From Herpetosiphon geysericola (GTDB taxonomy: Bacteria > Chloroflexota > Chloroflexia > Chloroflexales > Herpetosiphonaceae): 64,000 nucleotides of DNA. The first letter of the stretch is position 1. Every line of letters starts with the position of its first letter. The notes under the pieces were generated by a model. The model ran no database searches and had not been told where the DNA came from. It worked only from the letters and a program-made list of their open reading frames with translations. The DNA is taken from contig NZ_LGKP01000040.1 in the NCBI RefSeq assembly GCF_001306135.1, positions 152,726 through 216,725 of the forward strand. The letters run 5' to 3'. Shown in pieces: positions 10,809 to 42,072 of this stretch. The position numbers were made by a program, and so were the translations under genes.

Positions 10809-10861
10809 GCCACGGTTTCGTAGCCAAGCTGAATCTTTTTATTCCGCGAAAGGATAGCCCC

Positions 10862-11245: not shown

Positions 11246-11368
11246 GTGGTGGAGGGGCCGCACGAATCGGCGATTACGATGCTGAGGTCGCCTTGACCAT
11301 GCGCTTTGGCTGGACCTATGAGCAAATTCGCCAGCAACCGGCTGGCTTTATCGATGAATTAATCGCGC

Positions 11369-14800: not shown

Positions 14801-14807
14801 GGATCGC

Positions 14808-16175: not shown

Positions 16176-16186
16176 GCGAGGCACCC

Positions 16187-21727: not shown

Positions 21728-21787
21728 CATCTCTATTGAAAGGTAATATACTGCGCAAGCAAGGAAATAATATACATTAGTTATCTT

Positions 21788-21831
21788 CTACACCACAAGC
21801 GCATCCCACAATCTAACCTATTGTGGTGTAG
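21788..21831. terminator. bidirectional hairpin between convergent genes
   Basis: 11-bp inverted repeat CTACACCACAA ... TTGTGGTGTAG (21788-21798 and 21821-21831). Confidence 0.45.
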
Positions 21832-21899
21832 AGGATAATATTTGGCTTAATCAAATTAGCGAATTCAAAGTTGACTATTTTATACATTTAATATCTTGC

Positions 21900-22838
21900 T
21901 TATGCCAAAACCTTTTCAAACCATCCTCCCCGGAAAAAACGATGCGGCTGCTGAATTCGTTGGCCTTGCTTCGTATACTGCGTTGTCCAGATCGGCGCAA
22001 GCACGCCCGATTCGCGCACGTCGTCGATGGTCGCAATGAGGAGTTGACTGCCGGGCCAGCCGATTTCCCATGCATCGAGCACAGCGCGTTTCCGCCGTTC
22101 GTTCGGCACCGTAAAAGCAATCAATGGCCAGCTATAGCGCCCTTCCCAATAGCGTGATCGATATAATTCACGATACGAGTTGGCTTTGCCAGTAATGATA
22201 CTCAGTTCCTCGGTGCCCCGATCGATTTCAATGGCATAGAGTTGATCGATCTGTCCTGGCTGTTGGCCAAGACCGAGCCATGGATACAACGATGACCGCT
22301 CACAATCGGGCAGTGTCGCATCAGCCCAGCGCCGCACCACGATAATGCCGTCGGCGCGTGGCCGCGCGGTTGGACCCAAATCCATCTCAATATAACTACT
22401 CATCCCCACAATTCCAGGAACATACGGTAGCGATTGAATCAAGCTGGTGATGACCTCGGCATATTCAATCTGGTGCTCAGCTTGATGTTGGGGATTGAAC
22501 ATCGTTGGAGCCAATCGTTCGCTCCCTTCTTCCAACAACGGAAAGGCCTGCTTGACGATTTCCCAGCCAAGCGGGGTGAGGCTATACAACCGGCCATGGC
22601 GCGTCCAGCCAATTGCACCACGCGGATCATAGCCATGCGATTGAAAGTGCTCACAGTAGGTCAGCAGCTTGGCATCAACCAGTTTGGCCAACGTGCGATT
22701 GACCGTTTGAATCGTCACGGTAAACGGATGGCCCCAGGCCGTGCGGAGGTGGCGCGAGAGCAATCGCCCGAGCCGAGCAATGAGTACAAGCACGTGCATC
22801 TCGATGGGATTCAAGCCAACGGGTGTATGGATAGTCAT
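21900..22838 (-). CDS. winged-HTH protein with replication-relaxation (Replic_Relax, PD-(D/E)xK-clan)-like C-terminal region
   Basis: N-terminal wHTH-like segment (MHVLVLIARLGRLLSRHLRTAW...VNRTLAKLVDAKLL). C-terminal YAIEIDRGTE and ADGIIVV acidic motifs. Assignment from memory of family motifs, not verified. Confidence 0.4.
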   Translation of the reverse strand: MTIHTPVGLNPIEMHVLVLIARLGRLLSRHLRTAWGHPFTVTIQTVNRTLAKLVDAKLLTYCEHFQSHGYDPRGAIGWTRHGRLYSLTPLGWEIVKQAFPLLEEGSERLAPTMFNPQHQAEHQIEYAEVITSLIQSLPYVPGIVGMSSYIEMDLGPTARPRADGIIVVRRWADATLPDCERSSLYPWLGLGQQPGQIDQLYAIEIDRGTEELSIITGKANSYRELYRSRYWEGRYSWPLIAFTVPNERRKRAVLDAWEIGWPGSQLLIATIDDVRESGVLAPIWTTQYTKQGQRIQQPHRFFRGGWFEKVLA

Positions 22839-22859
22839 TCAATCACTCCTCACGACAAA

Positions 22860-23855
22860 TTACGAAAGAACAAGCTTTTCTAAAAGTTTTTTCTTCTCAA
22901 TTATTTCTAATTGTCGCTGTTGGAGGTGTACACGAATAGCATTTTGGGTCGATGAAGCAACGAAGGCTCGATAATATACGGATACACCAAACATTATTCC
23001 ACTACCAAATAAGAAAGCAATAATACTGATGGTAAGAACGCTAGTTACTCCAACTGGTGATTGCTCTACAATACTGAAAAAAGAGAATATTTTATCGCCT
23101 GCGGCAAGAACACCAGCACCCATGGAAACAAGAATGCCCACAAGCGCAGCAACCGTCATTATTAGGCTAATGATGCTCACACTATGCATACGAGTTTCTC
23201 TTCGCTGAATGAGGAGATCTAAGGTTTGTTCCAACTGTATTGTCTCTATCGGATTCAATATTTCATTTAATTCGTCCTGCAAAAAAGTATAAATTTTTTC
23301 AACTGAATAATTATTTTTATTACTATTCATTTCAGCAATAGTAACAAAAATAAAATCCATACTTGTTATAAAGTATATACATATACTAATAAGTAATGAG
23401 ACTATAAAACTTGATATTTCTATAAATATCAAACTAAATATTATAGGATTCATATTTTGAATGTTTATCAAAGAAAAACTGATAGACATTATGTAGAATA
23501 AATATAACTCTATAAGAAGAAATGATTTTATTGCTAATGATCTTTTTATAAAAGAGAAAATATGGTCTCTATAGTGTATAGGCTTGAATACCTTAAAGAA
23601 AGCTATTCCTATAGACACAAAGAAAAAGGTACCCACAAGTATATCTATATTAAAATTCTTGAAAATAGCTACAAATGAGGTTTGACGTGCTATTGAAAAT
23701 GCCGAGAGTATCATTGCAATTACAAAAATCAAGGTATATATAATAATGAAATTACGCCCCTGACGAATTCCTCCTTTCCAGTCCTCATACATTTTTGAAA
23801 TACCTTTTTCTACTTCGTTTTGAAACTGAATACAGAGTTCAAGATTTGTCGCCAT
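22860..23855 (-). CDS. polytopic membrane protein (about 7 TM), AT-rich moron of unknown function
   Basis: Seven strongly hydrophobic 20-25-aa segments with a about 50-aa soluble loop in the middle. About 30% GC. No catalytic motif. Confidence 0.6.
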   Translation of the reverse strand: MATNLELCIQFQNEVEKGISKMYEDWKGGIRQGRNFIIIYTLIFVIAMILSAFSIARQTSFVAIFKNFNIDILVGTFFFVSIGIAFFKVFKPIHYRDHIFSFIKRSLAIKSFLLIELYLFYIMSISFSLINIQNMNPIIFSLIFIEISSFIVSLLISICIYFITSMDFIFVTIAEMNSNKNNYSVEKIYTFLQDELNEILNPIETIQLEQTLDLLIQRRETRMHSVSIISLIMTVAALVGILVSMGAGVLAAGDKIFSFFSIVEQSPVGVTSVLTISIIAFLFGSGIMFGVSVYYRAFVASSTQNAIRVHLQQRQLEIIEKKKLLEKLVLS

Positions 23856-29267: not shown

Positions 29268-30862
29268 CATGCGCTATATCTCCACAATTGCATCGTTCGA
29301 CCATTGGCGGCTTTGGTCTCAAGCACGTCAATTTGGCCAGCGAGGCGTAAGACTTCTAAGATTTCGGTGATTTCTTTTTTGGATTGATTGGTCTGGCGAC
29401 ACAGATCGCGCACCGTCAATCCCGAAAGCGACTCTTTCAGAACGGCCAGCAGCTTATCGCCCAGCTTGGTTTCTTCACTCTGAATCCCATCGCTCCAAAT
29501 GCGGTGCAAGTCGCTGCGCCAGCGCTCGACAATCGTGATCGCACGTTTGAGATGATCGAGCTGCATCACCACCGGTAATTCGGGGCAGTCCATCGCGGCC
29601 AGAATCATGGCCACCCGCAGGACGTGCCCAGGGAAACGGGCATAACTGGCATAGAGCGTGTCAGGTAGCCCATTGTTCGGCAGATCAAAGCGCAACACCT
29701 TGTCATAGCGCTTCCACAACGTCATCACGCCAGGCGCGAGCCGAATCGAACTGGGCGGATGCTCGTTATAAATCCGCACAAAGCGCTTGATATTCTCTTC
29801 CGGCACATCATCGACCAATTCGGCCTCTGGCTTCGGAAAGAGCGCATCGAGCGCCTGCAAGTCCTGAATCAAGCGTTCAGGCATCACCAGCTCGTCAGGA
29901 AACTCGGCATAGCATGGTGGGGCATCGGGAATCAGAATCGCGAAGCGACTCCACAACCCTTCGTCCCACAGCTTTTCGCTGCGCAAGTGATCTTCGATAT
30001 TCTTGGGCGTGGTTGCGCCCAGAAACGAGAGACTGGCATCGCGAATCGTGGTGCGGCCATGGGTGATCGTTTCATGGGCCAAATACTCAGGGTTATCAAA
30101 CAACTTGAGTAACAGCGAGAGCAGCTCGGCCATATACTCTTTTTTCATATCGCTGAACAAGAACCCTGCTTCGTCGAGTAGCCATGCCCGTTGAGCCGCT
30201 TGGGCACGGGCAAGCAGCCATTGCTCACGGTCATAATCACTGTAGCTGTCCAGCTTATCGGGAATGACGGTCGAAAACTGCTGAAGCAGCGACTGGGGCG
30301 TGCTTTTGTCGGGTAAGAGCAAGTGGCCAAGGCCAGCGCGCCGTAGCACCCGCTCGACAACCTTCATCGCGGTCGATTTGGCATAGCGCCCTGGTGGGGC
30401 AACAAATAGCGCATAAATATTCGGGTAATAGTAAGTTTCACCAATTTGGAGATACAACCGCCGCGCGATCACGGTGGCGGCAAGGAAGAGACCCGCCGCC
30501 TCATGGAAAATCGGTGGCGTGACCGGACTCGCTTGGCTGGCATAGTCGATAAATGTATCAAGCCACTGCCCACATACGCCCTGCTGCCGGATGGTTTTCG
30601 TAAGTTCACTCGGCAGCGGCGGCATAGTTCGTAAGACGGTTGGGGCAGGCTGGTCAACGAGCAAGGCCGCCACCCGACTATCCACCCGAATCGCGGTTTC
30701 CAGTGCGGTTTGCACGGCAGGCGCACCGCCATGCTCAAAGGCATACACTAAACTTTGCATCATGGCTAACCATTCGCCCCAATCACGGGTCAGGTCAATC
30801 GTCTGGCCTGCGAGCAACTGCTGCAGCGCAGTGCGCACCTGCACATAGAGTGGAGTTGTCAT
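29267..30862 (-). CDS. DUF3987-like replicative helicase/loader protein with C-terminal wHTH
   Basis: Degenerate Walker A APPGRYAKST. Walker B LLDEAGF. About 530 aa. Downstream of the integrase, as in many tRNA-integrated islands. Confidence 0.55.
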   Translation of the reverse strand: MTTPLYVQVRTALQQLLAGQTIDLTRDWGEWLAMMQSLVYAFEHGGAPAVQTALETAIRVDSRVAALLVDQPAPTVLRTMPPLPSELTKTIRQQGVCGQWLDTFIDYASQASPVTPPIFHEAAGLFLAATVIARRLYLQIGETYYYPNIYALFVAPPGRYAKSTAMKVVERVLRRAGLGHLLLPDKSTPQSLLQQFSTVIPDKLDSYSDYDREQWLLARAQAAQRAWLLDEAGFLFSDMKKEYMAELLSLLLKLFDNPEYLAHETITHGRTTIRDASLSFLGATTPKNIEDHLRSEKLWDEGLWSRFAILIPDAPPCYAEFPDELVMPERLIQDLQALDALFPKPEAELVDDVPEENIKRFVRIYNEHPPSSIRLAPGVMTLWKRYDKVLRFDLPNNGLPDTLYASYARFPGHVLRVAMILAAMDCPELPVVMQLDHLKRAITIVERWRSDLHRIWSDGIQSEETKLGDKLLAVLKESLSGLTVRDLCRQTNQSKKEITEILEVLRLAGQIDVLETKAANGRTMQLWRYSA

Positions 30863-30972
30863 GTATCTATCCTCGGTGCTGCGGGAGGATACTCACCACA
30901 GCACACTACACTTACAAAACTGGGAAGGACTAGGATGCTGCCCCAATCACCGGCGGCGATTGGGGCACCTGA

Positions 30973-31278
30973 TTACGTCGACTCTGGCGCTTTGTCTTCG
31001 CCTTGCGCTGCATCAATCAAGAGGCGTTGAATTCGTTCCTGGTTGGCCTCGATCTCTGCGAGCAGCAGGGCGATCTTGGTCAGGATAAGTTCGACGGCTT
31101 CGGGATTGTTCAAGTGGTAGCGTTGATGCACCACTTGGTTGAGCAACTCTTTGGCTCGGATAGCTTGCTTCGACGATTGCGCGGCGTTCGCCAGCGCTTC
31201 GAGTCGATGTTCGTTCACCACGTTCGGCCAACGCAGTCGTCGCCGTGGCATCCACATCCCTTTCTTGGTGGTCGCCAT
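30973..31278 (-). CDS. small helical protein (possible excisionase/regulator)
   Basis: 101-aa ORF with sensible helical sequence. Overlaps the tail of the next ORF in another frame. Confidence 0.35.
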   Translation of the reverse strand: MATTKKGMWMPRRRLRWPNVVNEHRLEALANAAQSSKQAIRAKELLNQVVHQRYHLNNPEAVELILTKIALLLAEIEANQERIQRLLIDAAQGEDKAPEST

Positions 31279-31582
31279 TCACGAGGTCAAAGACAACCGC
31301 ACGGGTTTGCTGGCGACGTTTGATCATGCGCCAGACTTGCCACGTAATAATGACCCCACCACCAATGCCAAAGCTGGCGATGATCTGCTGCTCATACTGG
31401 GGCCAGCTGGCGTTCGGCGTAAGGCGGATGGCGATCCCTGCGGCAGTCACGCACAACAGGGTTCCGACAACCACTTCAATCCACGTCCAATCTGGTTCCA
31501 AGTAGTGCTTGTAATGCTCAAGCATCACGGCATACAGCATCGTGGCCATGGCCAAACCGATACCAATATTGATGGGCATAGA
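31013..31582 (-). CDS. small membrane protein (3' extent uncertain)
   Basis: ATG at 31582. Three hydrophobic helices in the first about 100 aa. The C-terminal about 80 aa of this frame look like low-complexity out-of-frame translation of the 30973-31278 ORF. Confidence 0.35.
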   Translation of the reverse strand, partial: SMPINIGIGLAMATMLYAVMLEHYKHYLEPDWTWIEVVVGTLLCVTAAGIAIRLTPNASWPQYEQQIIASFGIGGGVIITWQVWRMIKRRQQTRAVVFDLVNGDHQERDVDATATTALAERGERTSTRSAGERRAIVEASYPSQRVAQPSGASTLPLEQSRSRRTYPDQDRPAARRDRGQPGTNSTPLD

Positions 31583-31675
31583 TCCCCCTATCAGCAGGTT
31601 TTTTGTCAAAAACCTGCTGACTTTCTGTACACTTTTTCCCTTGTTTCTACCGGGATAGGTGGGCATACTGGAGGC

Positions 31676-32539
31676 TTATAAGCATGACTCCACCTTCTCG
31701 AGGAGGTTCACGCCTTGCCGATTTTGGGTCGCCTCATGGGATGAGAGTTGTGCATAGTGCAGAGACATTTGAATCGTTTCATGGCCCATCAATACCCGTA
31801 GACTTTCTGCATCAAGGCCTTTCTTGATCAGTTCGCGGGCGAAGGTGGCACGAAAGGAGTGAATCAAACGCCGCACATCATTGCGGATTTCCGCGTCGGA
31901 GGCTAAGCGATCGAAGCTCTGGTGTACGCCGCTAATCGTCAGCGTTTTTTGCTGGCGATGGCTGACAAACAACGCAGGGTTCGTATCCGTCCGACTGGCG
32001 ATGTAGGTTCGAAGGACTTCTTGGGTCACGGATGAAATCCAGATATATCGATCCTTGCTGCCTTTGCCAAGAATCATGGCGCAGCCTTCCGAGTCAAAGC
32101 TGGTCCGACGGAGTTGAATCAGTTCACTGACCCGAACGCCGGTATCCAGTAAGACACAGAGCATGGCTTTTTCACGAAGCTCGGCAACCAGCAGGAGGCG
32201 CTTAATTTGATCCATCGTGTAATGGGCAGGTAAGCGCTTGGGTAATCGGGGTTTGAGTTTATCGGTATTTACTGGCTGAATATAGCCTTCTTCAGCAAGC
32301 CAGCGCACGAGGATGAGTGCATCGTTGAGATAGCTATAGTGGCTGGCAATGCTTAAGTTTTGTTGGGCTAAGTACGCACTGTAGGCCCGCAATAACGCCC
32401 GACTGAGCACCTGATTCGGTTGCTCAAGCACCCAAGCGCCAAAGCGTCCTAACCGAATTCGGTAGGTGGTGATGGTTGCAGGGCTGCGGCGTTCGGCGAC
32501 TTTTGCGGACAAATATTCTTCAATCCATTGGCTAATCAT
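31676..32539 (-). CDS. int: tyrosine recombinase/integrase (XerC/D-like)
   Basis: Catalytic residues R (LLDTGVRVSEL), K, HxxR (HSFRATF), H..Y (LMGHETIQMSLHY). Lies 0.9 kb from the att duplicate. Confidence 0.85.
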   Translation of the reverse strand: MISQWIEEYLSAKVAERRSPATITTYRIRLGRFGAWVLEQPNQVLSRALLRAYSAYLAQQNLSIASHYSYLNDALILVRWLAEEGYIQPVNTDKLKPRLPKRLPAHYTMDQIKRLLLVAELREKAMLCVLLDTGVRVSELIQLRRTSFDSEGCAMILGKGSKDRYIWISSVTQEVLRTYIASRTDTNPALFVSHRQQKTLTISGVHQSFDRLASDAEIRNDVRRLIHSFRATFARELIKKGLDAESLRVLMGHETIQMSLHYAQLSSHEATQNRQGVNLLEKVESCL

Positions 32540-33460
32540 ACGAAATGACCTCGATCTATCGCGTTATCCCCGAAGGGATAGCGTGTGCGTTCGCAAATAC
32601 TCGACTCGAGGCCGCGCGGAGCGGAAAGAGTATGTGATGGGATACCTCTGCAGGTGGTGCTAAAGGGGTATCTCATTACAGGTCTTCAGACACACTGCGT
32701 TAAGGGGTGCTTGCACAACCAGCAATGGCGGTCGCCATTTTTTGGGTATAGCAAAGCAACCTACACGTTTGGTATTGGCAAATGGCTTTGGCTAGGTTGA
32801 TCTTCCAGAATTGGAAGCAACACAAAGCCAACCGTCATTCACCAATCGGTGTGAGGAAGACAGGAAACACACTGAGTCAAGGTCATTGGTATAACACTCA
32901 TCCATCGTAACCTTGCTTTGTGTCGATGGAGAGTGATGATCGTCAATCTCCGAACGATCATCTTTATGTATTAGGAAATGCCGGAGCGCGTTAATGGTTG
33001 AAGGCCGCAAGCGGCGTTCAGGAATAGGGAAGTCGGTGGGCAGGATTCCCAAGACGACATATGGTAAGCTTCGTGGATTCAATGATCCTGAATGCCCATG
33101 AAGCGTGGTAGATAAGCAGCGTGTCTTTGCATCAGTCCTGCTTATCTAACAAGTGGCGTGTCTAGCATCAACCACTTGTATTGGGTTTCTAGCAACGAGT
33201 GCATGCCAGATCCAAGGGAAGGCTATTGCTTTAATAAAGCACCCGATAACAATAGCCATGTTGGAAAGCTCGATGTGTCGAGTCAAGTTCGGGGTTAGCG
33301 TACCATATGCCAACCATGCAGAACGTTAACGCTGTATAAGAAAATGCTTTTGTAGTGACAGTGCATTGCAGCAATGTGGTGTTGCTGGCGAGCAGAAGCC
33401 AATAATCCTCCTTCAAAGCAGCCTGGTGAAACAGGGTGCTTGCTTTGCATTTTAGGCAAA

Positions 33461-33506
33461 CCTGTTAATCAATGGGTCCTAGGTTCGAGTCCTAGTCAGG
33501 GAGCCA
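33461..33506 (+). other. 46-nt duplicate of tRNA-Asn 3' half (anticodon loop to CCA), candidate attR core
   Basis: CTGTTAATCA...GTCCTAGGTTCGAGTCCTAGTCAGGGAGCCA is identical over 31 nt (and nearly over 46) to the 3' half of the tRNA gene 21 bp downstream. No 5' half is present. Confidence 0.6.
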
Positions 33507-33527
33507 CTTCTTTTTACAACTTGATAT

Positions 33528-33603
33528 TCCCTGATAGCTCAGTTGGTAGAGCGGTTGACTGTTAATCAGCATGTCCTAGGTTCGAGTCCTAGTCAGGGAG
33601 CCA
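33528..33603 (+). tRNA. tRNA-Asn (GTT)
   Basis: Cloverleaf with anticodon loop CTGTTAA. Close to the E. coli tRNA-Asn sequence. CCA encoded. Confidence 0.85.
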
Positions 33604-33608
33604 AAAAG

Positions 33609-33644
33609 ATCAACGCCCGCCTGAAATTTCAGCTGGGCGTTGAT
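33609..33644 (+). terminator. hairpin downstream of tRNA-Asn
   Basis: ATCAACGCCC ... GGGCGTTGAT 10-bp inverted repeat. Confidence 0.45.
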
Positions 33645-33836
33645 GATTTAAACCCATATGGTATCACTTAATAACTTCGCCACATCGCTGAACACCAATT
33701 AGCCAGCTGCCGATTGCGGTACACTATAACCCAGCATTATGCCCAATGATCAAAGATGCTAGGTTTTGCTGACGAGCGCTTAAAACCCTTGCTTCGCTGC
33801 ATGGGCAATCGTCGGCTCGTACCAAGAAAGGATGTT

Positions 33837-34754
33837 ATGAAGCAGGCTGTTGGTGATTCAGCTATTTCTACGCCGCCGCATCAAGCCGACCCATCGGCTC
33901 GCCGTCAACGTTGGTTTGGGATTGCGGCCATGCTGCTTTCGGCAACCGCCTTTGGCTGGCTCGGCGTATTTGCGCGGCTGGCCTACCAGGCTGGAGCCGA
34001 GCCGATTACGGTGTTATGTATGCGGTTTAGTATCGCCGCACTTGTTATGTTTGGGATTCTGCACGTGCGGGGCCAACGGCTGCCCCGTGGGAAAGTCCTC
34101 ATTGGATTAATCCTCTTGGGAGGGATTGGCTATGTAGCTCAATCCATGGCCTATTTTGTGGCGCTTACCATGGCCTCGGCTGGCTTAGTCGCAGTCTTGC
34201 TGTATTTGTATCCAGGGCTTGTTACCTTATTGGCAGTCGTCTTTTTCAAGGAACGCCTGACTCCACGCATGGTTCTGGCCTTAGTGCTGGCCCTCATAGG
34301 CTCGGCTTTGGCAATTGGCCCAATTGGCGGCGGCAAGCCACTCGGCATCATTCTCGCCATCAGTGGAGCGGTGATCTATGCCATTTATATCACCGCTGGG
34401 AGCCAAATTACCGCTCGCGCTGGAGCAATCCCTTCATCGACCGTGATTATGAGTGCAGCAGCGGTCGTATATACAGGCATTATGCTGGCTCGCGGCCCGG
34501 TTTGGCCAGCGACCACAGGCGGTTGGCTGGCAATTGTGGGCATTGCTCTTGTTTCAACGGTGTTGGCAATTGTGATGTTCTTTGTGGGGATGGAACGGAT
34601 TGGCCCAACCGCCGCCTCGACCATCTCGGCGTTGGAGCCGTTAGTCTCGGTTGGGGCGGCAGTTGTTGTGCTCCACGAGCCAATTAGCATTTGGCAACTT
34701 GCTGGTGGCCTGCTGATACTCACGGCAGTTGTGTTGTTAGCCCGAAGTTCATAG
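33837..34754 (+). CDS. EamA/DMT-family transporter
   Basis: Ten predicted TM helices with two EamA-like halves. GIGYVAQSMAYFVAL-type motifs. Confidence 0.75.
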   Translation: MKQAVGDSAISTPPHQADPSARRQRWFGIAAMLLSATAFGWLGVFARLAYQAGAEPITVLCMRFSIAALVMFGILHVRGQRLPRGKVLIGLILLGGIGYVAQSMAYFVALTMASAGLVAVLLYLYPGLVTLLAVVFFKERLTPRMVLALVLALIGSALAIGPIGGGKPLGIILAISGAVIYAIYITAGSQITARAGAIPSSTVIMSAAAVVYTGIMLARGPVWPATTGGWLAIVGIALVSTVLAIVMFFVGMERIGPTAASTISALEPLVSVGAAVVVLHEPISIWQLAGGLLILTAVVLLARSS

Positions 34755-34879
34755 CGAGCACTGCTCCATACCTAAACCTTCAAGTATCAATGTTCTCAAT
34801 AGGTTAAATGGCGAGCGATCGATAGCGAACCATCGATCGCTCTAGCAGTCATTTTAGAGCAGCATTATGCGCTAAGCTG

Positions 34880-36106
34880 CTACTGCACGTCACGCCCGAC
34901 AAGCGGCAAATAGAGTTTCCAACTTGGCGGCGTTGTGGTTGGCGATGTGATGGTTACGGTTGTTGTTGGAGTGCTGGTTGGAGTGGTGGTAGTGGGCGTG
35001 GTTGATGGTGGAGTGCTGGTTGGAGTGGTGGTGGTTGGAGTCACGCTTGGTGGAGTGGTTGCTGTTGGCGTGATGGTTGCTGTCGGCGTAATTGTTACAA
35101 TTGGCGTAATCGTTGCCGTTGGCGTGACGGTTGCTGTAATCGTTGCTGTTGGCGTAATTGTCACAATTGGCGTGACCGTTGCCGTTGGTGTAACAGTCGC
35201 CGTTGGTGTAACCGTTGCGGTTGGCGTGACGGTTGCGGTTGGTGTAATCGTTGCCGTTGGCGTGACGGTTGCCGTCGGTATGATCGTTGCGCTTGGCGTG
35301 ACGGTTGCCGTTGGCACAGGAATGTCAGCAAACAAGATCATGTATAAGGCGCTATTGTCTCCAACTTGGCGTAAATCGTTTGCCAGGAAATTGAAGTCGG
35401 TTTGCCCATTAACATTGCGATAATAGCCATAAGTTGGAGCGCCTAACGGTACAGAACCAGCAGCAAAGGCAGGAGCACCTGTACCGCCACGAATTGCTGT
35501 AGTCAGGTTCGTCGTATCAACAAGGCCAGCACCGCTATCGCCACGAATATTAATCGTCACACCATGATTGCTGAGGCCACTCAGGGTCAGCGGGTTGGTC
35601 AACGGAATTGAGATATCGTAAAGTCCTCCCGCTACGAGGCTGCGACTCCCAAAATCAAAGCTTAGTAAGCCGCCAACAGGGCTTGTAAACACTGTTGTAT
35701 TAGTAGCATTGAAACTATCCCAGAATTGAATCCGAACTTGGATATTGGTATAGGTAGTTGTGGAGAGCGAAACCAACCCAAACTGCAATGCAGTAATATC
35801 GCTTGCTGTTGCCAAATTGAATGGTTGCCCCATATAGGTATGGGGTGCGTTTGCAAAAGTAATAAAATCATCTGCCCCAGTGATTGTATCGAATATTGGA
35901 GTGATTACCTGCGGCAAACGAGCATTCGTCAGTAACGTGCCACTAGGCTTGAGTTGGCCCAGTGATGTGTCGAGCGCAGCTTCAGGCAAGCCTTGAGCTT
36001 GACGTGTAGCACTGGTTGTCGTTGGCGAAACTGCCAAGCTGGCAAGCAACGCTAACAGACACCCAACAGCACTCAGAATTCCCAACTGGCGATTGATTCG
36101 ATCCAT
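34880..36106 (-). CDS. secreted protein with C-terminal Thr/Pro-rich tandem repeats
   Basis: N-terminal signal/TM (LGILSAVGCLLALLASLAV). C-terminal (TATVTP)n and (TTTPTS)n repeats. RBS AGGAGGT before the ATG at 36106. Confidence 0.55.
   Translation of the reverse strand: MDRINRQLGILSAVGCLLALLASLAVSPTTTSATRQAQGLPEAALDTSLGQLKPSGTLLTNARLPQVITPIFDTITGADDFITFANAPHTYMGQPFNLATASDITALQFGLVSLSTTTYTNIQVRIQFWDSFNATNTTVFTSPVGGLLSFDFGSRSLVAGGLYDISIPLTNPLTLSGLSNHGVTINIRGDSGAGLVDTTNLTTAIRGGTGAPAFAAGSVPLGAPTYGYYRNVNGQTDFNFLANDLRQVGDNSALYMILFADIPVPTATVTPSATIIPTATVTPTATITPTATVTPTATVTPTATVTPTATVTPIVTITPTATITATVTPTATITPIVTITPTATITPTATTPPSVTPTTTTPTSTPPSTTPTTTTPTSTPTTTVTITSPTTTPPSWKLYLPLVGRDVQ
34930..35330. repeat. 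18-bp-periodic tandem repeats (GGCGTGACGGTTGCGGTT-like) encoding the TP-rich linker
   Basis: Directly visible periodic DNA. Confidence 0.6.
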
Positions 36107-36322
36107 GGATACCTCCTGCATGTTACCTAGCTTCAACTGAAGCCACGTAACTAATTAGCAATGATGAGGCCATAGAGTCAATAGCATATGCGCAGCATAG
36201 ACCATAAGTCCTTCTAGGAGGGCATCAATCCAACCAATTGGGCTGCTCGCGCTGAAGGTAAATCGATTCAAAATGATGATATGGTGCAATTGCAGTAGCC
36301 TTTACGATTACAATTTACCTAG

Positions 36323-36351
36323 TTGACATCCTATGTATGCCCCAATATAGT
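36323..36351 (+). promoter_or_regulatory. sigma70 consensus promoter for the OLD-family gene
   Basis: TTGACA (36323-36328), 17-bp spacer, TATAGT (36346-36351). 36 bp upstream of the ATG. Confidence 0.4.
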
Positions 36352-36387
36352 TAATAGTCAACATCCTTCAAGCTTTGGGGTAAATTT

Positions 36388-38169
36388 ATGTATCAAATTG
36401 AAACCTTATATTTGCCAGATTCAATCAAAAGCAGTTATCAAAATGTCGAAAGTCAGCCACTTACTCAACTCGATAGCCTTTCAAGGGTTAATATTTTAGT
36501 TGGCGAAAATAATGCAGGTAAAAGTCGGTTTATGCGGTTATTGGCCGAAGAGTCTAATTTTAAACTAAAACATACTAAAATTAATGAATTCAACTACAAA
36601 ATTGAACAAGAAATTAATAGATTAATTGATATATTTGATATTCATGAAGTTGATAGAATTGAGGCAATAACAAGGATTAATATAGAGAATTGTATTCATT
36701 ATCTGAAGGAAATAAATAGTATTTATACAAATCCGAAATATACAACATACAATAATATTTTTAATATTATTGAGACCATAAAAAACGATAATAGAATATC
36801 TTCTATTGCAAATATAATTATAAATCTACTTAATCAAGTACAGATTAAGTTTAATAAAAATATATATATACCTACTCTTCGTAGTTTACGCCCTTTAGAT
36901 AGTGAATATACGGATTTTTATCAAAATCAAACTATTGAGAGTTATTTTAAATCCGCAATTCATAAACCAGAAATTTATACAGGTTTAGGGATATATGCCA
37001 AACTAAGAATTTATCTACTTGGGGATAATGTAAAACGTAAAAAAATCAGAGAATATCAAGAATTTATTTCACATACTTTATTCGAAGACAAAGAAGTAAC
37101 TTTGATTCCGAGAGATGAAGAAAAACATATTTTTGTAAAAATTGGTAATGAAAAAGAACGACCAATTTATGATCTTGGTGATGGAATTCAATCAGCAATC
37201 ATTTTAACCTTTTTGCCATTTGTGAGCCTTGAAAATTGTATTTTCTTTATCGAAGAGCCAGAGCTTTTTCTACACCCAAGTATGCAGCGCAAAATTCTGG
37301 AGTTCTATCACTCGTTGGATCGTCATTTATTTTTTATGACAACTCACTCGAATCACTTGCTTGATATTACGATTGATATTCCTGAGATTTCAATCTATAA
37401 CTTTCGAAAATCACTTACTAGTAGTGATGATGATGAAACACCTCATTTCATTGTTGAAAATGTTGATAACAATCAAACTAGTTCATTAGAATTATTGGGA
37501 GTACGAAATTCATCAGTCTTATTAGTCAATGCCACAATCTGGGTTGAAGGAATAACCGACCGTTGGTATTTACGTGAGATGCTCCAAATGTATATGGAGA
37601 GTCAAAAAGATTTGAAACAGTTTGTTGAAGATATGCATTATATGTTTGTTGAGTATGGCGGTGGAAATATTACTCATTTCTCATTTGTAGATATGGAAGA
37701 TAAACTTATTACAATAGAACGACTATGTGCGAAAGCCTTTGTTATCATTGACCAAGATGGCGATGCTAAATTAAAACGTAAAGAAGAGCTTAAAGCTAAA
37801 CTTGGCGATACTTTACTTATTTTACCTTGTCGGGAAATTGAAAATAGCCTACCATCCGAGGTCATTCGCTCAGTTGTAATTGAATATGAGACATCTATAC
37901 AAAACCCAAACCCCGAAACAAATTCTTTTGTGTATGAGGATTACCAAAATGAATCGTTAGGGGAATTTATCGAAGATCATGTTATAAAAGGTGAGAAACA
38001 TCGTCGAGGTTCTTATAAAGCTGATTCAGGAACTATTACCGATAAACTTGGTTTTTGTACAAAAGCCTTAGCATATTTGAAAAATCTTACATTCGATCAA
38101 CTACCTTCTACAATTCAAAAAGAAATAGAGGGCATATATAAGTTTATTGCAAAGCTGAATCCTAGCTAA
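36388..38169 (+). CDS. OLD-family nuclease (N-terminal ABC-type ATPase plus C-terminal Toprim), standalone
   Basis: Walker A GENNAGKS. ABC signature/Walker B region IEEPELFLHP. H-loop TTHSNH. Toprim WVEGITDRW ... FVIIDQDGD. About 30% GC. Confidence 0.7.
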   Translation: MYQIETLYLPDSIKSSYQNVESQPLTQLDSLSRVNILVGENNAGKSRFMRLLAEESNFKLKHTKINEFNYKIEQEINRLIDIFDIHEVDRIEAITRINIENCIHYLKEINSIYTNPKYTTYNNIFNIIETIKNDNRISSIANIIINLLNQVQIKFNKNIYIPTLRSLRPLDSEYTDFYQNQTIESYFKSAIHKPEIYTGLGIYAKLRIYLLGDNVKRKKIREYQEFISHTLFEDKEVTLIPRDEEKHIFVKIGNEKERPIYDLGDGIQSAIILTFLPFVSLENCIFFIEEPELFLHPSMQRKILEFYHSLDRHLFFMTTHSNHLLDITIDIPEISIYNFRKSLTSSDDDETPHFIVENVDNNQTSSLELLGVRNSSVLLVNATIWVEGITDRWYLREMLQMYMESQKDLKQFVEDMHYMFVEYGGGNITHFSFVDMEDKLITIERLCAKAFVIIDQDGDAKLKRKEELKAKLGDTLLILPCREIENSLPSEVIRSVVIEYETSIQNPNPETNSFVYEDYQNESLGEFIEDHVIKGEKHRRGSYKADSGTITDKLGFCTKALAYLKNLTFDQLPSTIQKEIEGIYKFIAKLNPS

Positions 38170-38181
38170 AGGTCTCACACT

Positions 38182-38718
38182 ATGCAGCAACCTACGTGGC
38201 AGATTAATACTTATCAACAAAGATGGCATGTGCGTTGGCACCCAGCCGATAGCGAGCCAGCAGGCAAAGCTCATGGCTCAGCTGGTATTTGCCTCACGCC
38301 TGAACGCCACATTGTAGTGGTGAGCCAAAATGGGCGTGATTGGGATGTACCAGCTGGCCGCAGCGAGGCGGGCGAATCGTGGGCAGCAACCTTGCAGCGT
38401 GAGGTGGCCGAAGAAGCATGTGCGATAGTTCAAAGTGCCAGCTTATTGGGCTTTTGCCAAAGCCAATGTTTGGACGGGGCAGAACAAGGGCTAATCTTAG
38501 TGCGCGCATTTTGGTTGGCCCACGTTACAATCCAAGCATGGCAGCCTCAATTCGAAATGATCGAACGCCGGATTATTGCTCCAAGCCAAATTTGGAGCTA
38601 CCTACCGCAGGCCTATCTACCAATCTATCGCCATGTATTGCAACTCGCCGCAGAATTCAGCTCGGCAACACAACAATCGCGAAGCTTATTTTCTAGCCCC
38701 GAAGCCCACAAAGGATAG
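38182..38718 (+). CDS. NUDIX hydrolase
   Basis: Nudix box GRSEAGESWAATLQREVAEEAC. Host-like GC. Confidence 0.7.
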   Translation: MQQPTWQINTYQQRWHVRWHPADSEPAGKAHGSAGICLTPERHIVVVSQNGRDWDVPAGRSEAGESWAATLQREVAEEACAIVQSASLLGFCQSQCLDGAEQGLILVRAFWLAHVTIQAWQPQFEMIERRIIAPSQIWSYLPQAYLPIYRHVLQLAAEFSSATQQSRSLFSSPEAHKG

Positions 38719-39060
38719 GAACCGCGAAGAGCGCTAAGGACACGAAGATTATTTTCGCCACGAATTCCACGAATTGCACGAATCTATGATCACTAACCCA
38801 AAGCCACATTCCTCTACACCTCTGCTTAACATTGATCTATGAAGGCTCAGTTTTTAGCCACAGATTGTCACAGATTGTTTTGATTGCTGTTTCCCTAGCC
38901 CATAGCCCAGCCCCCAACAACCGATCCCCATCCCTTCTGACTTCTGACTTCTGACTTTTGATTTGGCATTTCATCCTTCATCCCTCATCCTTCATCCTTT
39001 CAAAATTGCCGCTTGACTCTATAGCATAGTATAGGGTTTATCCTAGGCAACAGAAAGGAA
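38719..39060. repeat. intergenic short-repeat cluster (CCACGAATT, TTTTTAGCCACAGATTG, CTTCTGACTT x3, CATCCTTCATCC)
   Basis: Visible tandem and dispersed words shared with other intergenic regions of the window. Confidence 0.5.
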
Positions 39061-39067
39061 TTGAGCG

Positions 39068-39478
39068 ATGCAAATTGGCCAAGTAGCCCGCCGCTGTGGA
39101 GTAAGTGTCCAAACAGTCCGTTTGTATGAACGCATGAGCTTGATCGAAACCGCCCAACGCCGTGAATCAGGCTATCGCGATTATTCGAGCACAGTCATTG
39201 CGCGAATTTTGGCGATCAAGCAGGGCCAAGCGCTTGGCTTTAGCCTACGCGAGATGGGCATGTTTCTGCAACTCAGCCCACAAACCACAGATCAGCAGTT
39301 GATTGAGCAATTTGTTGGGCAAAAAATTAAGCAAATTGACCAGACGGTTCAACAATTTCAACGCTTGCGCTTGGCGCTCGAAGAATTTGCCACTCGTTCT
39401 GCCGATGACCCGGGTGAATGCCCAGTTATTTATGCCTTGGCCGAGATGGCCTGTGTACAAGGAGTTTCTGATGCGTAG
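39068..39478 (+). CDS. MerR-family transcriptional regulator
   Basis: N-terminal MQIGQVARRCGVSVQTVRLYE MerR HTH. Confidence 0.75.
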   Translation: MQIGQVARRCGVSVQTVRLYERMSLIETAQRRESGYRDYSSTVIARILAIKQGQALGFSLREMGMFLQLSPQTTDQQLIEQFVGQKIKQIDQTVQQFQRLRLALEEFATRSADDPGECPVIYALAEMACVQGVSDA

Positions 39479-39866
39479 AACAACGCAAAGTTTACGTTGG
39501 TTTGGGTGGTATGCGGTTAGTACAGGCTTGTTGGCGGCGCTCGCGCCAAATCTCATTTTGGGGCTTTTTGGCTTGCCAGCAACCAGCGAAGTTTGGCCAC
39601 GGGTGGCGGGCATGCTGATTGGCTTTATCGGCATATTGCACATGAATGTTAGCCCAATCAATCTGCAACGCTATGCCTTAGCGACGGTGGTGTTAAGACT
39701 TAGCGTGCCATTGATCTTTGGTTGGTGGGTGCTGAGCGGGCTTGGCCCATGGCAGCTACTCTTTTTTGCTGGTGCTGATGTAGTTGGAGCGCTGGCGACG
39801 TTGTGGGGCTTGCGGGTTGATCAACAAACGGGCAATCCACGCCAAACTAGCGCAATTGCCCGCTAA
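39472..39866 (+). CDS. small membrane protein
   Basis: About four hydrophobic helices. Start overlaps the MerR stop. Confidence 0.45.
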
Positions 39867-39871
39867 AAAAG

Positions 39872-41134
39872 CTAATCGCGCACGTGACCAGCGCCACGCA
39901 CAATCCATTTATACGAGGTCAATTCGCGCAAGGCCATCGGGCCACGAGCATGCAATTTTTGGGTGCTGATCGCAATTTCAGCGCCCAAACCCAATTGCGA
40001 GCCATCGGTGAAACGAGTTGAAGAATTGGCATAGACCACCGCCGAATCAACTTCATTCAAAAAGCGCTCGATTGCCATTGGATCTTGCGACAAAATCGTT
40101 TCTGAATGGTCGGTTCCATACTGATCAATATGCTCAAGCGCTTGATCAAGCCCATCAACTACCCGCACGGCCAAGATTAATGCAGAAAACTCTTGGCCAA
40201 AATCATCAGGCTGGGCCGCGACTAAATGCCACTCGCTGTTGCCAGCCTCGCGCAAAATCGCCAACGACTCGGGATCGCAGCGCAATTCGACCTTATGCTC
40301 TTGCAAGGCAGCACCCAAGCGCGGCAAGAGTTTGGCGGCAGCACTGCGTTCAATCAACAAGGTTTCAAGCGAATTGCAGACGCTTGGGCGTTGCACCTTC
40401 GCATTAACAATGATTGGCACAACTTGATCGAGCGGCGCAGTATGGTCAACATAGGCATGGCACACGCCAATCCCGCCAGTAATTACCGGAATCGTAGCAG
40501 TTTGGCGGCAAAACGCGTGCAAGCCCGAGCCACCACGCGGAATAATCATATCGACATAACGATCCAAGGTCAGCAAACCACGCACCAATTCACGATCAGG
40601 GTTATCGATCAATTGCAAGGCATCGGCGGGCAAATCGACGCGTTCTAAGGCGCGACGCAAGGCCTGCACCAACGCTGCTGCAGAACGGGTAATTTCCTTG
40701 CCACCACGCAAAATCACCGCGCTGCCAGCTTTGATGCACAAGGCGGCCACATCAGCGGTAACATTGGGCCGCGCCTCGTAGATGACGCCGACCACGCCCA
40801 GCGGCACACGGCGCTTTTCAATGCGCAAGCCATTGGGCAGCACGCCTTGCTCAAAAACCTCGCCAACAGGATCGGGTAACACCGCCACCGTGCGCACATC
40901 GTTGGCAATTGCTTCGAGCCGTTGTTCATTGAGTAATAAACGGTCAAGCAAAGCCGGAGTTAAGCCAGCCTCGCGCCCCAGCCGCATATCAGCAGCGTTA
41001 GCCGAAAGAATCGATTCGCGATCAAGGCTTAGTTCTTCGGCCATCGCCTCGACGGCTGCATTGCGTTGGGCCGTAGTTGTGCGGGCCAATAATCGGGCTG
41101 CCAGCTTTGCGCGCTGACCCATTGCCTCAAGCAT
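39872..41134 (-). CDS. proA: gamma-glutamyl phosphate reductase
   Basis: Aldehyde dehydrogenase fold with ProA-specific segments ([15 protein letters not shown]). Confidence 0.9.
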
Positions 41135-41158
41135 TGTACACTCCTCATTGACTAGCCA

Positions 41159-41854
41159 TCATAACTCGCCGAGTGGTGCTGCTGGATGATCTTCGCCTTC
41201 GAGATCGCCTTCGAGTTGCCAGCGAACTGCTGCATGCAAATGTACAGCATCGTTGTAGCCACCCAAAAACCAGCGCACCTGCCCACCCCGCTGATGCTGA
41301 TACCAATGAGTCAAGGATGTATTGGTCACTTCTAGGTCAACATTCGGTTGCTCGCTGCGGGTATGTGGCCAAAAATAGCTTAATGATGATTCTATCACCC
41401 AACCATGGCAAACAATTACAATCGTTGCATCAGGATTTGCCTTCAGCACTCGTTCGAAATTGGTGTGAGTTCGTAGGCAAAAGCTTTGCCATGTCTCGCC
41501 ACCTGGTGATAAGGGCTTACGCAAATCAAAATCAAATTTGCCATAGCGTTGATTATATTCTTTCCAGCTTAGGCCATCGGCCTCGCCAACATTGAACTCG
41601 CAAAATGTCTCATCATAAATCAAGGGTTGGGCAAACGCAGGCGCAATAATCTCGGCGGTTTGCATTGCCCGTGGCATCGTACTACAAATAAACAGATCGG
41701 GCACGATTTCGCGGGTCGCAATCAGCCGATCGCGCAAATGTTCAGCTTGTTGCACGCCCAAATCGGTCAAGCCCCGATCGCCTTTGATGCCACCAATAAT
41801 TGGCTCGACATTCACCACAGCCTGCCCATGGCGTATCAAATACAGTTTAGCCAT
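41159..41854 (-). CDS. histidine phosphatase family protein (PGM-like)
   Basis: N-terminal LYLIRHGQ (RHG catalytic motif). Confidence 0.7.
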   Translation of the reverse strand: MAKLYLIRHGQAVVNVEPIIGGIKGDRGLTDLGVQQAEHLRDRLIATREIVPDLFICSTMPRAMQTAEIIAPAFAQPLIYDETFCEFNVGEADGLSWKEYNQRYGKFDFDLRKPLSPGGETWQSFCLRTHTNFERVLKANPDATIVIVCHGWVIESSLSYFWPHTRSEQPNVDLEVTNTSLTHWYQHQRGGQVRWFLGGYNDAVHLHAAVRWQLEGDLEGEDHPAAPLGEL

Positions 41855-41859
41855 AAAAC

Positions 41860-42072
41860 CCCACATAGAAAGGCAGAAGTCAAAAATCAAAAGTCAAAAT
41901 GGCCTTTGCTATTAAACATAAAGCCAATCAGCATCCCAAATGAACTCAGAAGTCAAAAATCAAAAGTCAAAATAACGTATCGGTTGCTATTCAGTTAGCG
42001 GTAATCCTATCAACATTTTGAGAAATATCAAAGGACTAAGCATTTTTGCCTTTTGATTTCTGCCCTTTGACT
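41860..42072. repeat. intergenic short-repeat cluster (AGTCAAAA(A)TCAAA, TTTTGCCTTTTGATTTCTGCCCTTTGACTT)
   Basis: Visible repeated words, same family as elsewhere. Confidence 0.4.

Follow-up and report, generated by a model that had tools for sequence, protein, structure and literature searches.

The gene at positions 36388 to 38169 of the window (the whole stretch of 64,000 nucleotides from Herpetosiphon geysericola analysed here) encodes a single-polypeptide enzyme of the OLD-family type. Our results suggest that this enzyme is most likely a standalone anti-phage nuclease, of the abortive-infection type, and that its linkage to the NUDIX gene downstream is positional, a reading to which we would assign a probability of about 0.7. 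The gene is a real but fairly ordinary find, of an already known kind of system. The features discussed are as follows.

36264-36322, no strand: left boundary zone of the replaced segment, placed by blastn and MAFFT against loci L001 to L003 and by alignment with loci L004 and L010
36323-36351, + strand: putative sigma-70-like promoter site, TTGACA-17-TATAGT (11/12 match)
36388-38169, + strand: OLD-family-type gene (593 aa; ABC ATPase and divergent Toprim protein)
36478-37365, + strand: ABC-type ATPase head (residues 31-326)
36550-36852, + strand: hypervariable four-helix insertion within the ATPase (residues ~55-155)
37510-37857, + strand: Toprim-like core (residues ~375-490)
37858-38166, + strand: C-terminal helical region (residues 491-593)
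38170-38181, + strand: 12-nt spacer AGGTCTCACACT between the OLD stop and the NUDIX ATG, the right boundary of the replaced segment
38182-38718, + strand: NUDIX hydrolase gene (178 aa; host-like composition; intact Nudix box)
38643-38930, no strand: second rearrangement, replacing the relatives' NUDIX 3' end and a 225-aa low-GC membrane-protein gene

An AT-rich gene for a two-domain protein

The OLD gene has a GC content of 30.7% (GC3, 22.1%) between flanks of about 50%, and the nearby NUDIX, EamA and proA genes range from 52 to 55% (GC3, 48 to 56%); a foreign base composition is supported. The site TTGACA (36323)-17 nt-TATAGT (to 36351) is the sole 11/12 promoter match within positions 36100 to 39100, and its -35 and -10 hexamers are kept in the orthologous loci L004 and L010, as is the 5' UTR, which closes with GGGGTAAATTT directly before the OLD ATG. 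The AT-rich stretch as a whole shows no excess of promoter-like sites (13 found versus 11.0 +/- 3.4 expected from shuffles). In a homolog search the protein was 100% identical to one from H. geysericola that carries the annotation 'ATP-dependent nuclease'; no record was matched in an exact-protein lookup. The surrounding genes in the window encode a secreted protein, NUDIX, MerR and ProA. No UvrD-like helicase gene, DUF4435 gene or reverse-transcriptase-sized ORF adjoins the OLD gene in the window, and the only noncoding RNA family found by Rfam at positions 30000 to 42000 was a tRNA. A preliminary description of this DNA had proposed an AT-rich gene with its own promoter, lying outside the prophage and lacking a UvrD-like helicase, retron or DUF4435 partner. 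These points are borne out by the composition and the promoter match, by the position of the gene outside the prophage-like block and by the ORFs, domain searches and Rfam search of the window.

The N-terminal part of the protein is an ABC-superfamily ATPase, as in other OLD proteins, and matches Pfam AAA_21 (2e-16) and AAA_15 (7e-16) over residues 31 to 326. It carries a Walker A motif (G39-x-N-N-x-G-K45-S), a signature-like motif (LGDGIQ, residues 263-268), a Walker B motif with D-loop (FFIEEPE; E289, E290) and an H-loop (THSNH; H320, H323). In an AF2 model (pLDDT, 86; pTM, 0.82), four helices (residues 65-85, 96-108, 116-129 and 135-151) form an insertion of residues 65 to 151 between Walker A and the core strand that follows, again as in the OLD family. 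This insertion has no consensus across the family and, among the window, L004 and L010, shows only 26 to 50% nucleotide identity, i.e., it is effectively unalignable. It is a probable dimerisation and/or trigger-sensing module.

The evidence for the C-terminal Toprim domain is of several kinds. Motifs of the Toprim type (WVE387-G-I-T-D391-R, VE422-YGG, D455-x-D457-G and RE-I-E485-N486) are present, the catalytic-type residues E387, D391, E422, D455, D457 and E485 are invariant in 53 homologs, and the window copy is intact with every family-invariant residue in place. The helical region that follows contains further invariant residues (E501, R539, Y543, K553 and F556), and the 3' third of its coding sequence is mosaic through recombination between alleles. 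The Pfam model PF20469 (OLD-like_TOPRIM) gave E values of 0.03 to 0.09 (13.8 to 15.3 bits), short of a cutoff of 23.2 that is the threshold of one model and not what defines the OLD family; 27 of the 53 members had a subthreshold match (best E, 0.0028) and none reached the gathering score. No PDB Toprim sequence matched the family profile at an E value of ≤1. Profile alignment with P2 Old by hhalign gave a probability of 95.7% (E, 1e-8); the two run collinearly between the signature motif and the first strand of the Toprim domain, and IWVEGITDR is paired with LLVEGKTE. The PADLOC models for Old, GajA and AriAB extend to residues 425 to 532, i.e., into the Toprim region. When the isolated C-terminal domain was searched with Foldseek, the five best matches were all OLD C-terminal regions (6njv/6njw/6njx and 6nk8; probability, 0.90 to 0.99), with domain-level TM-scores of just 0.40 to 0.50. 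These data give moderate support for a predicted Toprim fold that includes the conserved Glu and the acidic DxD cluster, and they support a domain that would be a very divergent OLD-like Toprim. Of the original assignment to an OLD-family ATPase-Toprim protein, the ATPase part is secure (Pfam, ~1e-16), and the Toprim part holds with weaker sequence-level support than had been implied.

Relationship to the known OLD classes

The protein belongs to a large family that counts no fewer than 2,124 clusters (50% identity) with E values of ≤1e-30, the best-scoring of which match end to end; its members are full-length proteins, mostly of 600 to 650 aa. We found no dedicated Pfam, NCBIfam or PADLOC model for this family, and PADLOC scores place it at about the same distance from each of the models for Old, GajA and fused AriAB. 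Outside close relatives, no neighbouring gene recurred in 13 loci, and the gene is thus, as in Class 1, a standalone gene in variable neighbourhoods, with the caveat of a lineage-specific NUDIX neighbour in Herpetosiphon. In 7 of the 13 loci the OLD-type gene lies 10 to 20 GC points below its flanks. Elsewhere, the neighbours of family members include genes for a Y1 transposase, TIR_2, DUF4365, a DNA methylase and TniQ, as well as HEPN, resolvase, PIN and Schlafen/AlbA proteins. One member lies in a P2/186-like Vibrio prophage, close to the end that carries the integrase; the depositors of this prophage named the homolog 'Retron_I_B ATPase_TOPRIM'. Further members are found on Bacillus cereus plasmids. 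The family usually occurs in AT-rich, mobile or defence-type surroundings. A metagenome scan with the family alignment added little to these neighbourhood statistics: only some 6 of its 80 loci belonged to the family, and the rest were mostly distant ATPase relatives.

Class 1 is represented by P2 Old, the Thermus scotoductus OLD (PDB 6P74), Vibrio cholerae Vc OLD and Escherichia coli YbjD. The window protein resembles this class in being a single polypeptide, of 593 aa, in which an N-terminal ABC ATPase interrupted by a helical insertion is followed by a Toprim domain at the C terminus; its gene is likewise a standalone one in variable neighbourhoods. The best PDB sequence match of the family profile is 6P74 (E, 2.7e-9), the profile match to P2 Old has the probability of 95.7% given above, and one family member occupies an accessory position of a P2/186-like prophage. 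There are also differences from Class 1: sequence similarity extends no further than the region of the signature, Walker B and H-loop and the first Toprim strand, the Toprim domain falls under the Pfam OLD-like_TOPRIM threshold and the PADLOC Old model is matched over only ~30% of its length. Most family members, moreover, exceed the range of 500 to 600 aa given for Class 1 (PMC12392090).

The other classes share the domain plan in part. [quoted passage not shown] Full-length Foldseek searches placed the retron Eco8 OLD effector (5e-12), AriB (1.4e-8; TMt, 0.56), PtuA and GajA at the top, so that likenesses to Classes 3 and 4 exist. A reverse transcriptase and a retron ncRNA are nevertheless absent: there is no adjacent RT ORF, Rfam finds only the tRNA and the NCBIfam model retron_eff_Eco8 scores 24.5 bits against a cutoff of 250. 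A retron context was accordingly rejected. In PADLOC, proposed earlier as a check, the Old, GajA and AriAB models match the protein, at 1e-15 to 5e-17, with partial coverage. The suggestion of a class-1-like single-gene system stands in an operational sense, as there is no helicase, retron or DUF4435 partner and no neighbour conserved family-wide.

A rival reading is improbable: the protein would be of fused PARIS type (AriA-AriB), with an ATPase that senses phage anti-restriction proteins and releases or activates a Toprim tRNA nuclease. AriAB is nominally the best full-length PADLOC model (5e-17, query residues 247 to 532; 1e-20 at best across the family), AriB (8v47_H) is among the top full-length Foldseek matches with the highest target-normalised TM-score (0.56), and fused forms are known (PMC12392090). 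However, the AriAB match covers ~39% of the profile (positions 294 to 563 of 694) and is no better than those of Old and GajA. DUF4435, the AriB domain, was detected in 0 of 53 members at an E value of ≤0.1, compared with 27 of 53 for OLD-like_TOPRIM; the C-terminal domain had no DUF4435 match at an E value of ≤10 and no DUF4435 gene is adjacent. AriB is also missing from the 50 best matches of the isolated C-terminal domain, which are headed by Class-2 OLD C-terminal regions, and the family profile has no sequence match to AriB. A PARIS context was rejected on the lack of DUF4435 and the partial AriAB match.

A variable slot that ends at a core NUDIX gene

Comparison with related genomes indicates that the OLD gene occupies a variable slot in Herpetosiphon, bounded on the right by a core NUDIX gene at its start codon. 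Four Herpetosiphon genomes (L001 to L003 and L094) have a WD40 gene and a NUDIX promoter in place of the OLD gene. Homology with L001 to L003 stops at about 36264 to 36270, in intergenic DNA downstream of the WD40 gene and beside the 5' end of the secreted-protein gene, and homology with all four picks up again at the NUDIX ATG; homology with the other OLD-bearing loci starts ~15 to 25 nt before the -35 hexamer. The segment with the OLD promoter and gene (~36265 to 38181) takes the place of a WD40 gene of 349 to 360 aa with host-like GC, the native NUDIX promoter and its Shine-Dalgarno sequence. What had been described as an insertion is, relative to these four genomes, a replacement and not a simple insertion. 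The recommended comparison of the secreted-protein/NUDIX junction confirmed the absence of the OLD gene from these four relatives; it also showed that the arrangement is not peculiar to the window genome, because three other Herpetosiphon-like lineages (L004, L010/L011 and L012) carry the same OLD-NUDIX junction, of 8 to 12 nt, with different left flanks.

The OLD alleles in Herpetosiphon are recombination mosaics. L010 and L012 share 99.65% identity across 6 kb from the NUDIX ATG onward; for their OLD genes the identity is 91%, and the 3' ends cannot be aligned. An OLD copy interrupted by an in-frame stop occurs in at least one lineage. The alleles are only 68 to 78% identical, yet have a GC3 of 22 to 33% throughout, which would hardly be expected after long residence in a genome of 50% GC. 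No terminal direct or inverted repeats or target-site duplications were found around the OLD gene, and nothing points to insertion by a transposon or an integrase-type mechanism. Either gain or loss of the OLD gene may have occurred at the locus. The relatives' WD40 and 225-aa genes do not occur elsewhere in the window, and PADLOC matched no defence model in either protein. The slot is similar to the core-gene-flanked defence hotspots of Pseudomonas aeruginosa (PMC10250203) in that the cargo varies between conserved flanks (EamA on the left and NUDIX on the right), here either OLD or else WD40, alone or together with the secreted-protein gene, and in that alleles are exchanged by recombination. 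It differs from them in having two alternative cargos only, in a sample of eight loci, and in that the WD40 cargo has host-like GC and is not an evident defence gene.

The NUDIX gene itself matches PF00293 (E, 1e-8) and has a Nudix box, GRSEAGESWAATLQREVAEE; the pattern G-x5-E-x7-R-E-U-x-E-E-x-G-U is present as GRSEAGESWAATLQREVAEEACA, with C instead of the final G. Residues 1 to 154 are orthologous to the relatives' protein, and the last 24 were rewritten by the downstream rearrangement. As originally noted, the gene starts 12 nt after the OLD stop (TAA at 38167 to 38169; ATG at 38182). The spacer contains no terminator-like site and only a weak AGG, versus a GAGGA Shine-Dalgarno sequence in the OLD-less relatives. 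Cotranscription with OLD in the window is likely, judging from the sequence, because NUDIX lacks its own promoter and Shine-Dalgarno sequence in the OLD arrangement. The core gene would have lost these signals on filling of the slot and would now probably be read through from the OLD promoter.

Whether the NUDIX enzyme is cotranscribed and functionally coupled was a question raised in the preliminary description. It is unlikely that the two Herpetosiphon genes make up a true OLD and NUDIX system, in which the NUDIX enzyme might, for example, hydrolyse a nucleotide gating the ATPase or process the nuclease product; if true, this would be an OLD enzyme captured in a stable operon with a modulating NUDIX, a new OLD context or 'OLD-NUDIX' class, an outcome that we consider just as doubtful. 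Four lineages that differ in their left flanks share the junction of 8 to 12 nt, which has neither promoter nor terminator, and the NUDIX ATG is invariably where the variable segment stops. The spacing is also kept among lineages whose NUDIX proteins differ by ~26 to 28%, as would be expected of a real operon too. NUDIX also has an intact box and relies on upstream transcription in the window. However, NUDIX, and not OLD, has the GC and GC3 of the host, and its phylogeny follows host clade instead of OLD presence: the window protein is 89 to 90% identical to the NUDIX of OLD-less L001/L003 and only 72 to 74% identical to OLD-linked NUDIX. The idea that the pair moves as a single cassette was rejected on the same figures. 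In four relatives NUDIX occurs without OLD and is preceded by a promoter and Shine-Dalgarno sequence of its own, and it is 100% identical in L010 and L012, whose OLD alleles differ. Orthologs at 45 to 48% identity have no OLD neighbour, no Nudix-box ORF was found within 4 kb of eight independent non-Herpetosiphon family loci, so that beside family members in other phyla the gene is missing and a Nudix box is confined to the Herpetosiphon loci, and our literature search found no report of OLD-Nudix coupling, the OLD papers retrieved making no mention of Nudix. NUDIX is best read as a core-gene anchor, linked to OLD by position rather than partnership, and the question of coupling is mostly answered as a positional effect.

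Proposed function and wider meaning

A standalone anti-phage nuclease could act as follows, by analogy with P2 Old, Ts OLD, Vc OLD, GajA and AriA/AriB. An ATPase dimer, via the variable insertion, may sense an infection cue or that a cellular factor has been lost; two-metal cleavage at the Toprim site would then be licensed when ATP is bound or hydrolysed. The target may be DNA (by nicking or exonuclease activity) or tRNA anticodon stems, and its cleavage would halt phage replication or kill the cell. We put the substrate at ~50% for DNA and ~40% for RNA, which is our own estimate and not a computed value. The defence role of the clade probably holds, on the basis of guilt by association. A cellular role outside defence (DNA repair, or a chromosome or cell-cycle function) or a decaying selfish remnant is very improbable. 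SMC and Rad50 heads are close structural neighbours, the archaeal OLD class Cran1 has a nondefence role and shows that housekeeping OLD proteins are possible (PMC12796447), and one Herpetosiphon lineage has the in-frame stop. Against this, the gene is patchy in the genus and an unrelated gene takes its place in close relatives, its composition is foreign and its alleles are mosaics, the family associates with mobile and defence genes, prophages and plasmids, and the window copy is intact with all invariant residues.

In summary, we describe what is most likely a standalone anti-phage nuclease of the OLD type. To our knowledge, standalone (Class 1) proteins are the least understood OLD class, and we know of phage phenotypes only for P2 Old, Vc OLD and YbjD. 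This family may be a distinct, previously unclassified OLD-type clade, in which the hypervariable insertion would be the phage-sensing surface. The gene stands for a large uncurated clade that Pfam, NCBIfam and PADLOC reach through generic ATPase matches only and that defence-annotation tools probably overlook. The Herpetosiphon loci are a natural comparison set, in which the allele in a single slot is intact, interrupted by a nonsense codon, mosaic or absent, and they point to the hypervariable insertion as a candidate specificity determinant.

An OLD-type protein with a divergent nuclease half

The OLD gene, its promoter-like site and the NUDIX gene directly 3' of it lie in the window as follows.

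36323-36351: promoter-like site TTGACA-17 nt-TATAGT, 65 nt upstream of the OLD ORF
36388-38169, plus strand: OLD ORF, 593 aa
From ATG 38182: NUDIX gene, 178 aa, PF00293 at E=1e-8, intact Nudix box

The OLD ORF has a GC content of 30.7% and a GC3 of 22.1%, against 52-55% and 48-56%, respectively, for the flanking EamA transporter, NUDIX and proA genes. The promoter-like site is the sole 11/12 match to the sigma-70 consensus within 36100-39100, the total count of such sites in the AT-rich OLD region not being above shuffles, and its hexamers and the 5' UTR are conserved in two Herpetosiphon-like lineages with an OLD gene (L004 and L010). A 12-nt link separates the OLD stop codon (38167-38169) from the NUDIX start, with no terminator-like site found between the two genes. 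These checks bear out the coordinates and sequence-level statements of the preliminary description (ORF, low GC, consensus-like promoter and 12-nt gap).

The protein, identical (100%) to one annotated in H. geysericola as 'ATP-dependent nuclease', had been read as an ABC ATPase joined to a Toprim domain. The ATPase part of this reading stands: the ABC-type models AAA_21 and AAA_15 cover residues 31-326 at ~1e-16, and Walker A (G39..K45-S), the signature-like LGDGIQ, the Walker B/D-loop IEEPE and the H-loop THSNH are invariant in an alignment of 53 full-length homologs. Over a helical insertion in this domain (residues ~55-155; window 36550-36852), the window, L004 and L010 alleles are in effect impossible to align. 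The C-terminal half is much more divergent than the ATPase head; Pfam OLD-like_TOPRIM matches it only below the cut-off (E=0.03-0.09), with sub-threshold matches in 27 of the 53 family members, and DUF4435 (AriB-type Toprim) matches none of the 53. However, four other lines of evidence point to a Toprim domain of the OLD type. Three full-length PADLOC models (Old, GajA, fused AriAB) score 1e-15 to 5e-17 and reach residues 425-532. The family profile aligns with phage P2 Old (sequence from NC_001895) at a probability of 95.7% (E=1e-8), the match being collinear over the signature motif, Walker B, the H-loop and the first Toprim strand, where IWVEGITDR of the family is aligned with LLVEGKTE of P2 Old. 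All residues that one would expect in a two-metal Toprim site (E387, D391, E422, D455xD457 and E485-N486) are invariant in the 53 homologs. Lastly, an AlphaFold2 model (pLDDT 86, pTM 0.82) has the retron Eco8 OLD effector, AriB, PtuA and GajA as its best Foldseek matches, while for residues 342-593 modelled separately (pLDDT 84) the five best matches are OLD C-terminal regions (6njv/6njw/6njx, 6nk8; probability 0.90-0.99, TM only 0.40-0.50). We conclude that the window protein is of the OLD-family type, an ATPase-Toprim protein whose nuclease domain is unusually divergent.

History of the locus

Four OLD-less Herpetosiphon genomes were compared: H. giganteus (L001), H. llansteffanensis (L002), strain NSE202 (L003) and the more distant L094 (proA, 94% vs 98% for the other three). 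All four share the order EamA, a secreted-protein or 178-aa gene, a WD40-repeat gene (349-360 aa, minus strand, host-like GC), NUDIX, a 225-aa low-GC membrane-protein gene, MerR, one further gene and proA. In the window, the OLD promoter and gene stand in place of the WD40 gene and the WD40-NUDIX intergenic region, including the promoter-like boxes and GAGGA Shine-Dalgarno sequence of the relatives' NUDIX gene; homology to the relatives stops on the left at ~36264 and restarts on the right at the NUDIX ATG. The window is also without the 225-aa gene, and the last 24 NUDIX residues are rewritten. Since the WD40 arrangement is also that of the outgroup, L094, the window carries the derived state for this group. 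The earlier proposal of an insertion beside NUDIX is only partly right; on sequence comparison, the event is a replacement of the WD40 segment and not a simple insertion. No terminal repeats or target-site duplications were found at this replacement.

In the closest OLD homologs, the NUDIX ortholog likewise starts 8-10 nt downstream.

L004: OLD 68% identical to the window; left flank, DegT aminotransferase
L010/L011: OLD 78% identical; left flank, EamA directly; right flank, NFACT
L012: OLD 72% identical; same species-level background as L010

The NUDIX proteins form three groups (window and L001-L003, 83-90% identity; L004 and L010/L012, 85%; L094), with 71-78% identity across groups. By this grouping, the OLD-NUDIX junction and the WD40 arrangement each occur on both sides of a deep division within the genus. 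L010 and L012 are 99.65% identical across 6 kb beginning exactly at the NUDIX ATG, yet their OLD genes agree at only 91% and cannot be aligned at the 3' end; identity between the two runs at 98-99%, then at 65-87%, then at 100% in NUDIX. A sliding comparison revealed mosaic tracts in every OLD allele pair and, in the 3' third (window 37570-38180), sharp identity switches between pairs. Together with the unalignable helical insertion, these switches indicate intragenic recombination and possibly diversifying selection. In L010 and L011, an in-frame stop within the helical-insertion region splits the OLD ortholog into 129 and 489 aa (L010 1355-3216; L011 270-1739). As contigs from at least two samples show this split, the ortholog is a probable pseudogene.

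Several other features were observed at and around the locus. The 225-aa ORF (multi-pass membrane-like, 34.5% GC, no Pfam or PADLOC match; L001 10526-11203, minus strand, and also in L002, L003 and L094) adjoins NUDIX downstream in 4/4 WD40-type genomes and is missing from every OLD-type locus (window 38643-38930), so that its presence co-varies with WD40 and against OLD. The 418-aa 'secreted protein' (34880-36136, minus strand) matches no Pfam family. It carries a hydrophobic segment at the N-terminus and a lengthy, almost perfect array of TPTATV/TPTATI hexapeptides; relatives conserve its first 280 residues at 79-90% and vary in the repeat array. An intergenic repeat, short and dispersed (CTTCTGACTTCTGAC ... 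CATCCTTCATCCCTCATCC), lies ahead of the MerR gene (window 38934-39000) and is found again at several intergenic positions in H. giganteus (L001 4432-4497, 14610-14640, 16056-16173 and 20237-20306). A tRNA-Asn (33528-33603) is confirmed by ARAGORN and Rfam, and an 87-nt 'tRNA-Lys(ttt)' (33420-33506) is an ARAGORN call only; the stretch 33462-33603 occurs several times in H. giganteus (L001 5952-6261), which suggests att-type partial duplications from integrative elements. A low-GC island at 18494-23855 (29-36% GC within a 55-60% context) contains a 1077-aa ORF with N6_Mtase, Eco57I and Type_ISP_C domains, which resembles methyltransferases of the Type IIG/ISP or BREX-PglX kind. On the minus strand it has a Replic_Relax/MarR-like gene (21900-22838), and a further ORF of 331 aa is without a Pfam match. 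Lying ~12.5 kb from the OLD gene, the island appears to be a second defence or mobile block gained by horizontal transfer. The block 1000-17950 is high in GC (~59%) and encodes an SPP1-type portal protein (4611-6302); several of its large ORFs lack Pfam matches. It is presumably the prophage mentioned in the preliminary description.

NUDIX, probably a positional neighbour

Whether NUDIX is co-transcribed with OLD and functionally coupled to it had been left as a question, and the two parts receive different answers. The OLD arrangement leaves NUDIX no space for a promoter of its own, and the Shine-Dalgarno sequence found in OLD-less relatives is lost, so that co-transcription is likely; only a weak 9/12 promoter-like site lies within the OLD 3' end. 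A functional partnership is unlikely because NUDIX is host-like in composition, tracks host phylogeny rather than OLD presence and occurs without OLD in four relatives; moreover, its orthologs outside the genus (45-48% identity) have no OLD neighbour, and 8 independent non-Herpetosiphon loci are without a Nudix-box ORF in the 4 kb around the family gene. The tight OLD-NUDIX spacing has been kept across lineages, and for this reason we retain a small probability for a genuine lineage-specific coupling. Conserved right and variable left junctions are what one expects if NUDIX is a homology anchor for OLD allele exchange.

The family and its proposed action

A family profile search of 1.84 billion cluster representatives found at least 2,124 clusters at E<=1e-30, of which the best 150 are nearly all end-to-end matches of 600-690 aa. 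Members occur in Acidobacteriota (Pyrinomonadaceae), Bacillota (Paenibacillus, Bacillus and Solibacillus), Planctomycetota and Verrucomicrobiota; others lie on plasmids of the B. cereus group and in a Vibrio prophage of the P2/186-like type. No family-specific model was found in Pfam, NCBIfam or PADLOC, and by best family-wide score (AriAB, 1e-20; GajA, 2e-20; Old, 1.5e-18) the family is essentially equidistant from the three models. Class 1 OLD genes are standalone, with variable neighbourhoods (PMC10568477, PMC12796447), and the same is true of this family: no neighbour recurs across 13 loci, and the gene is 10-20 GC points under its flanks in 7 of them. Nearby genes encode IS200/IS605 transposase, TIR_2, DUF4365, DNA methylase, TniQ, HEPN, resolvase, PIN toxin and Schlafen/AlbA proteins. 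Gabija, retron and PARIS contexts were each tested for the OLD gene and rejected. Operationally, the gene is in a Class 1 situation, in agreement with the single-gene reading proposed earlier.

Directly after the Vibrio prophage member (phage 10N.286.45.F8_PE002, PQ189333; 34% identity across 90% of the query), and overlapping it by 4 nt, comes a gene for a DUF3427 protein of 458 aa. This pair (L098 4926-8134) could be a local two-gene variant; it is located three genes away from the integrase, in accessory DNA with the CI repressor/endolysin genes on one side and the integrase end on the other.

The window protein has an intact ATPase, an intact Toprim-type acidic cluster and a hypervariable insertion, and its gene behaves as standalone, mobile, AT-rich DNA. 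Among OLD relatives (reviewed in PMC10568477), P2 Old hydrolyses ATP and then cuts the anticodon stems of tRNA (PMC12445682), and Vc OLD nicks DNA, requiring Walker A/B and DxD (PMC12392090). By analogy, an ATPase dimer would sense an infection cue, possibly via the variable insertion, and sensing would license two-metal cleavage of either DNA or tRNA, which would abort infection.

In summary, the finding is real and was for the most part read correctly at the outset. The gene is a divergent member of the already known OLD-type proteins, and it behaves like the cargo of a variable slot that has a conserved core gene as its anchor, with alleles exchanged by recombination and sometimes decayed or replaced. 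The 12-nt link to NUDIX, which made the locus look special, is best explained by this history.
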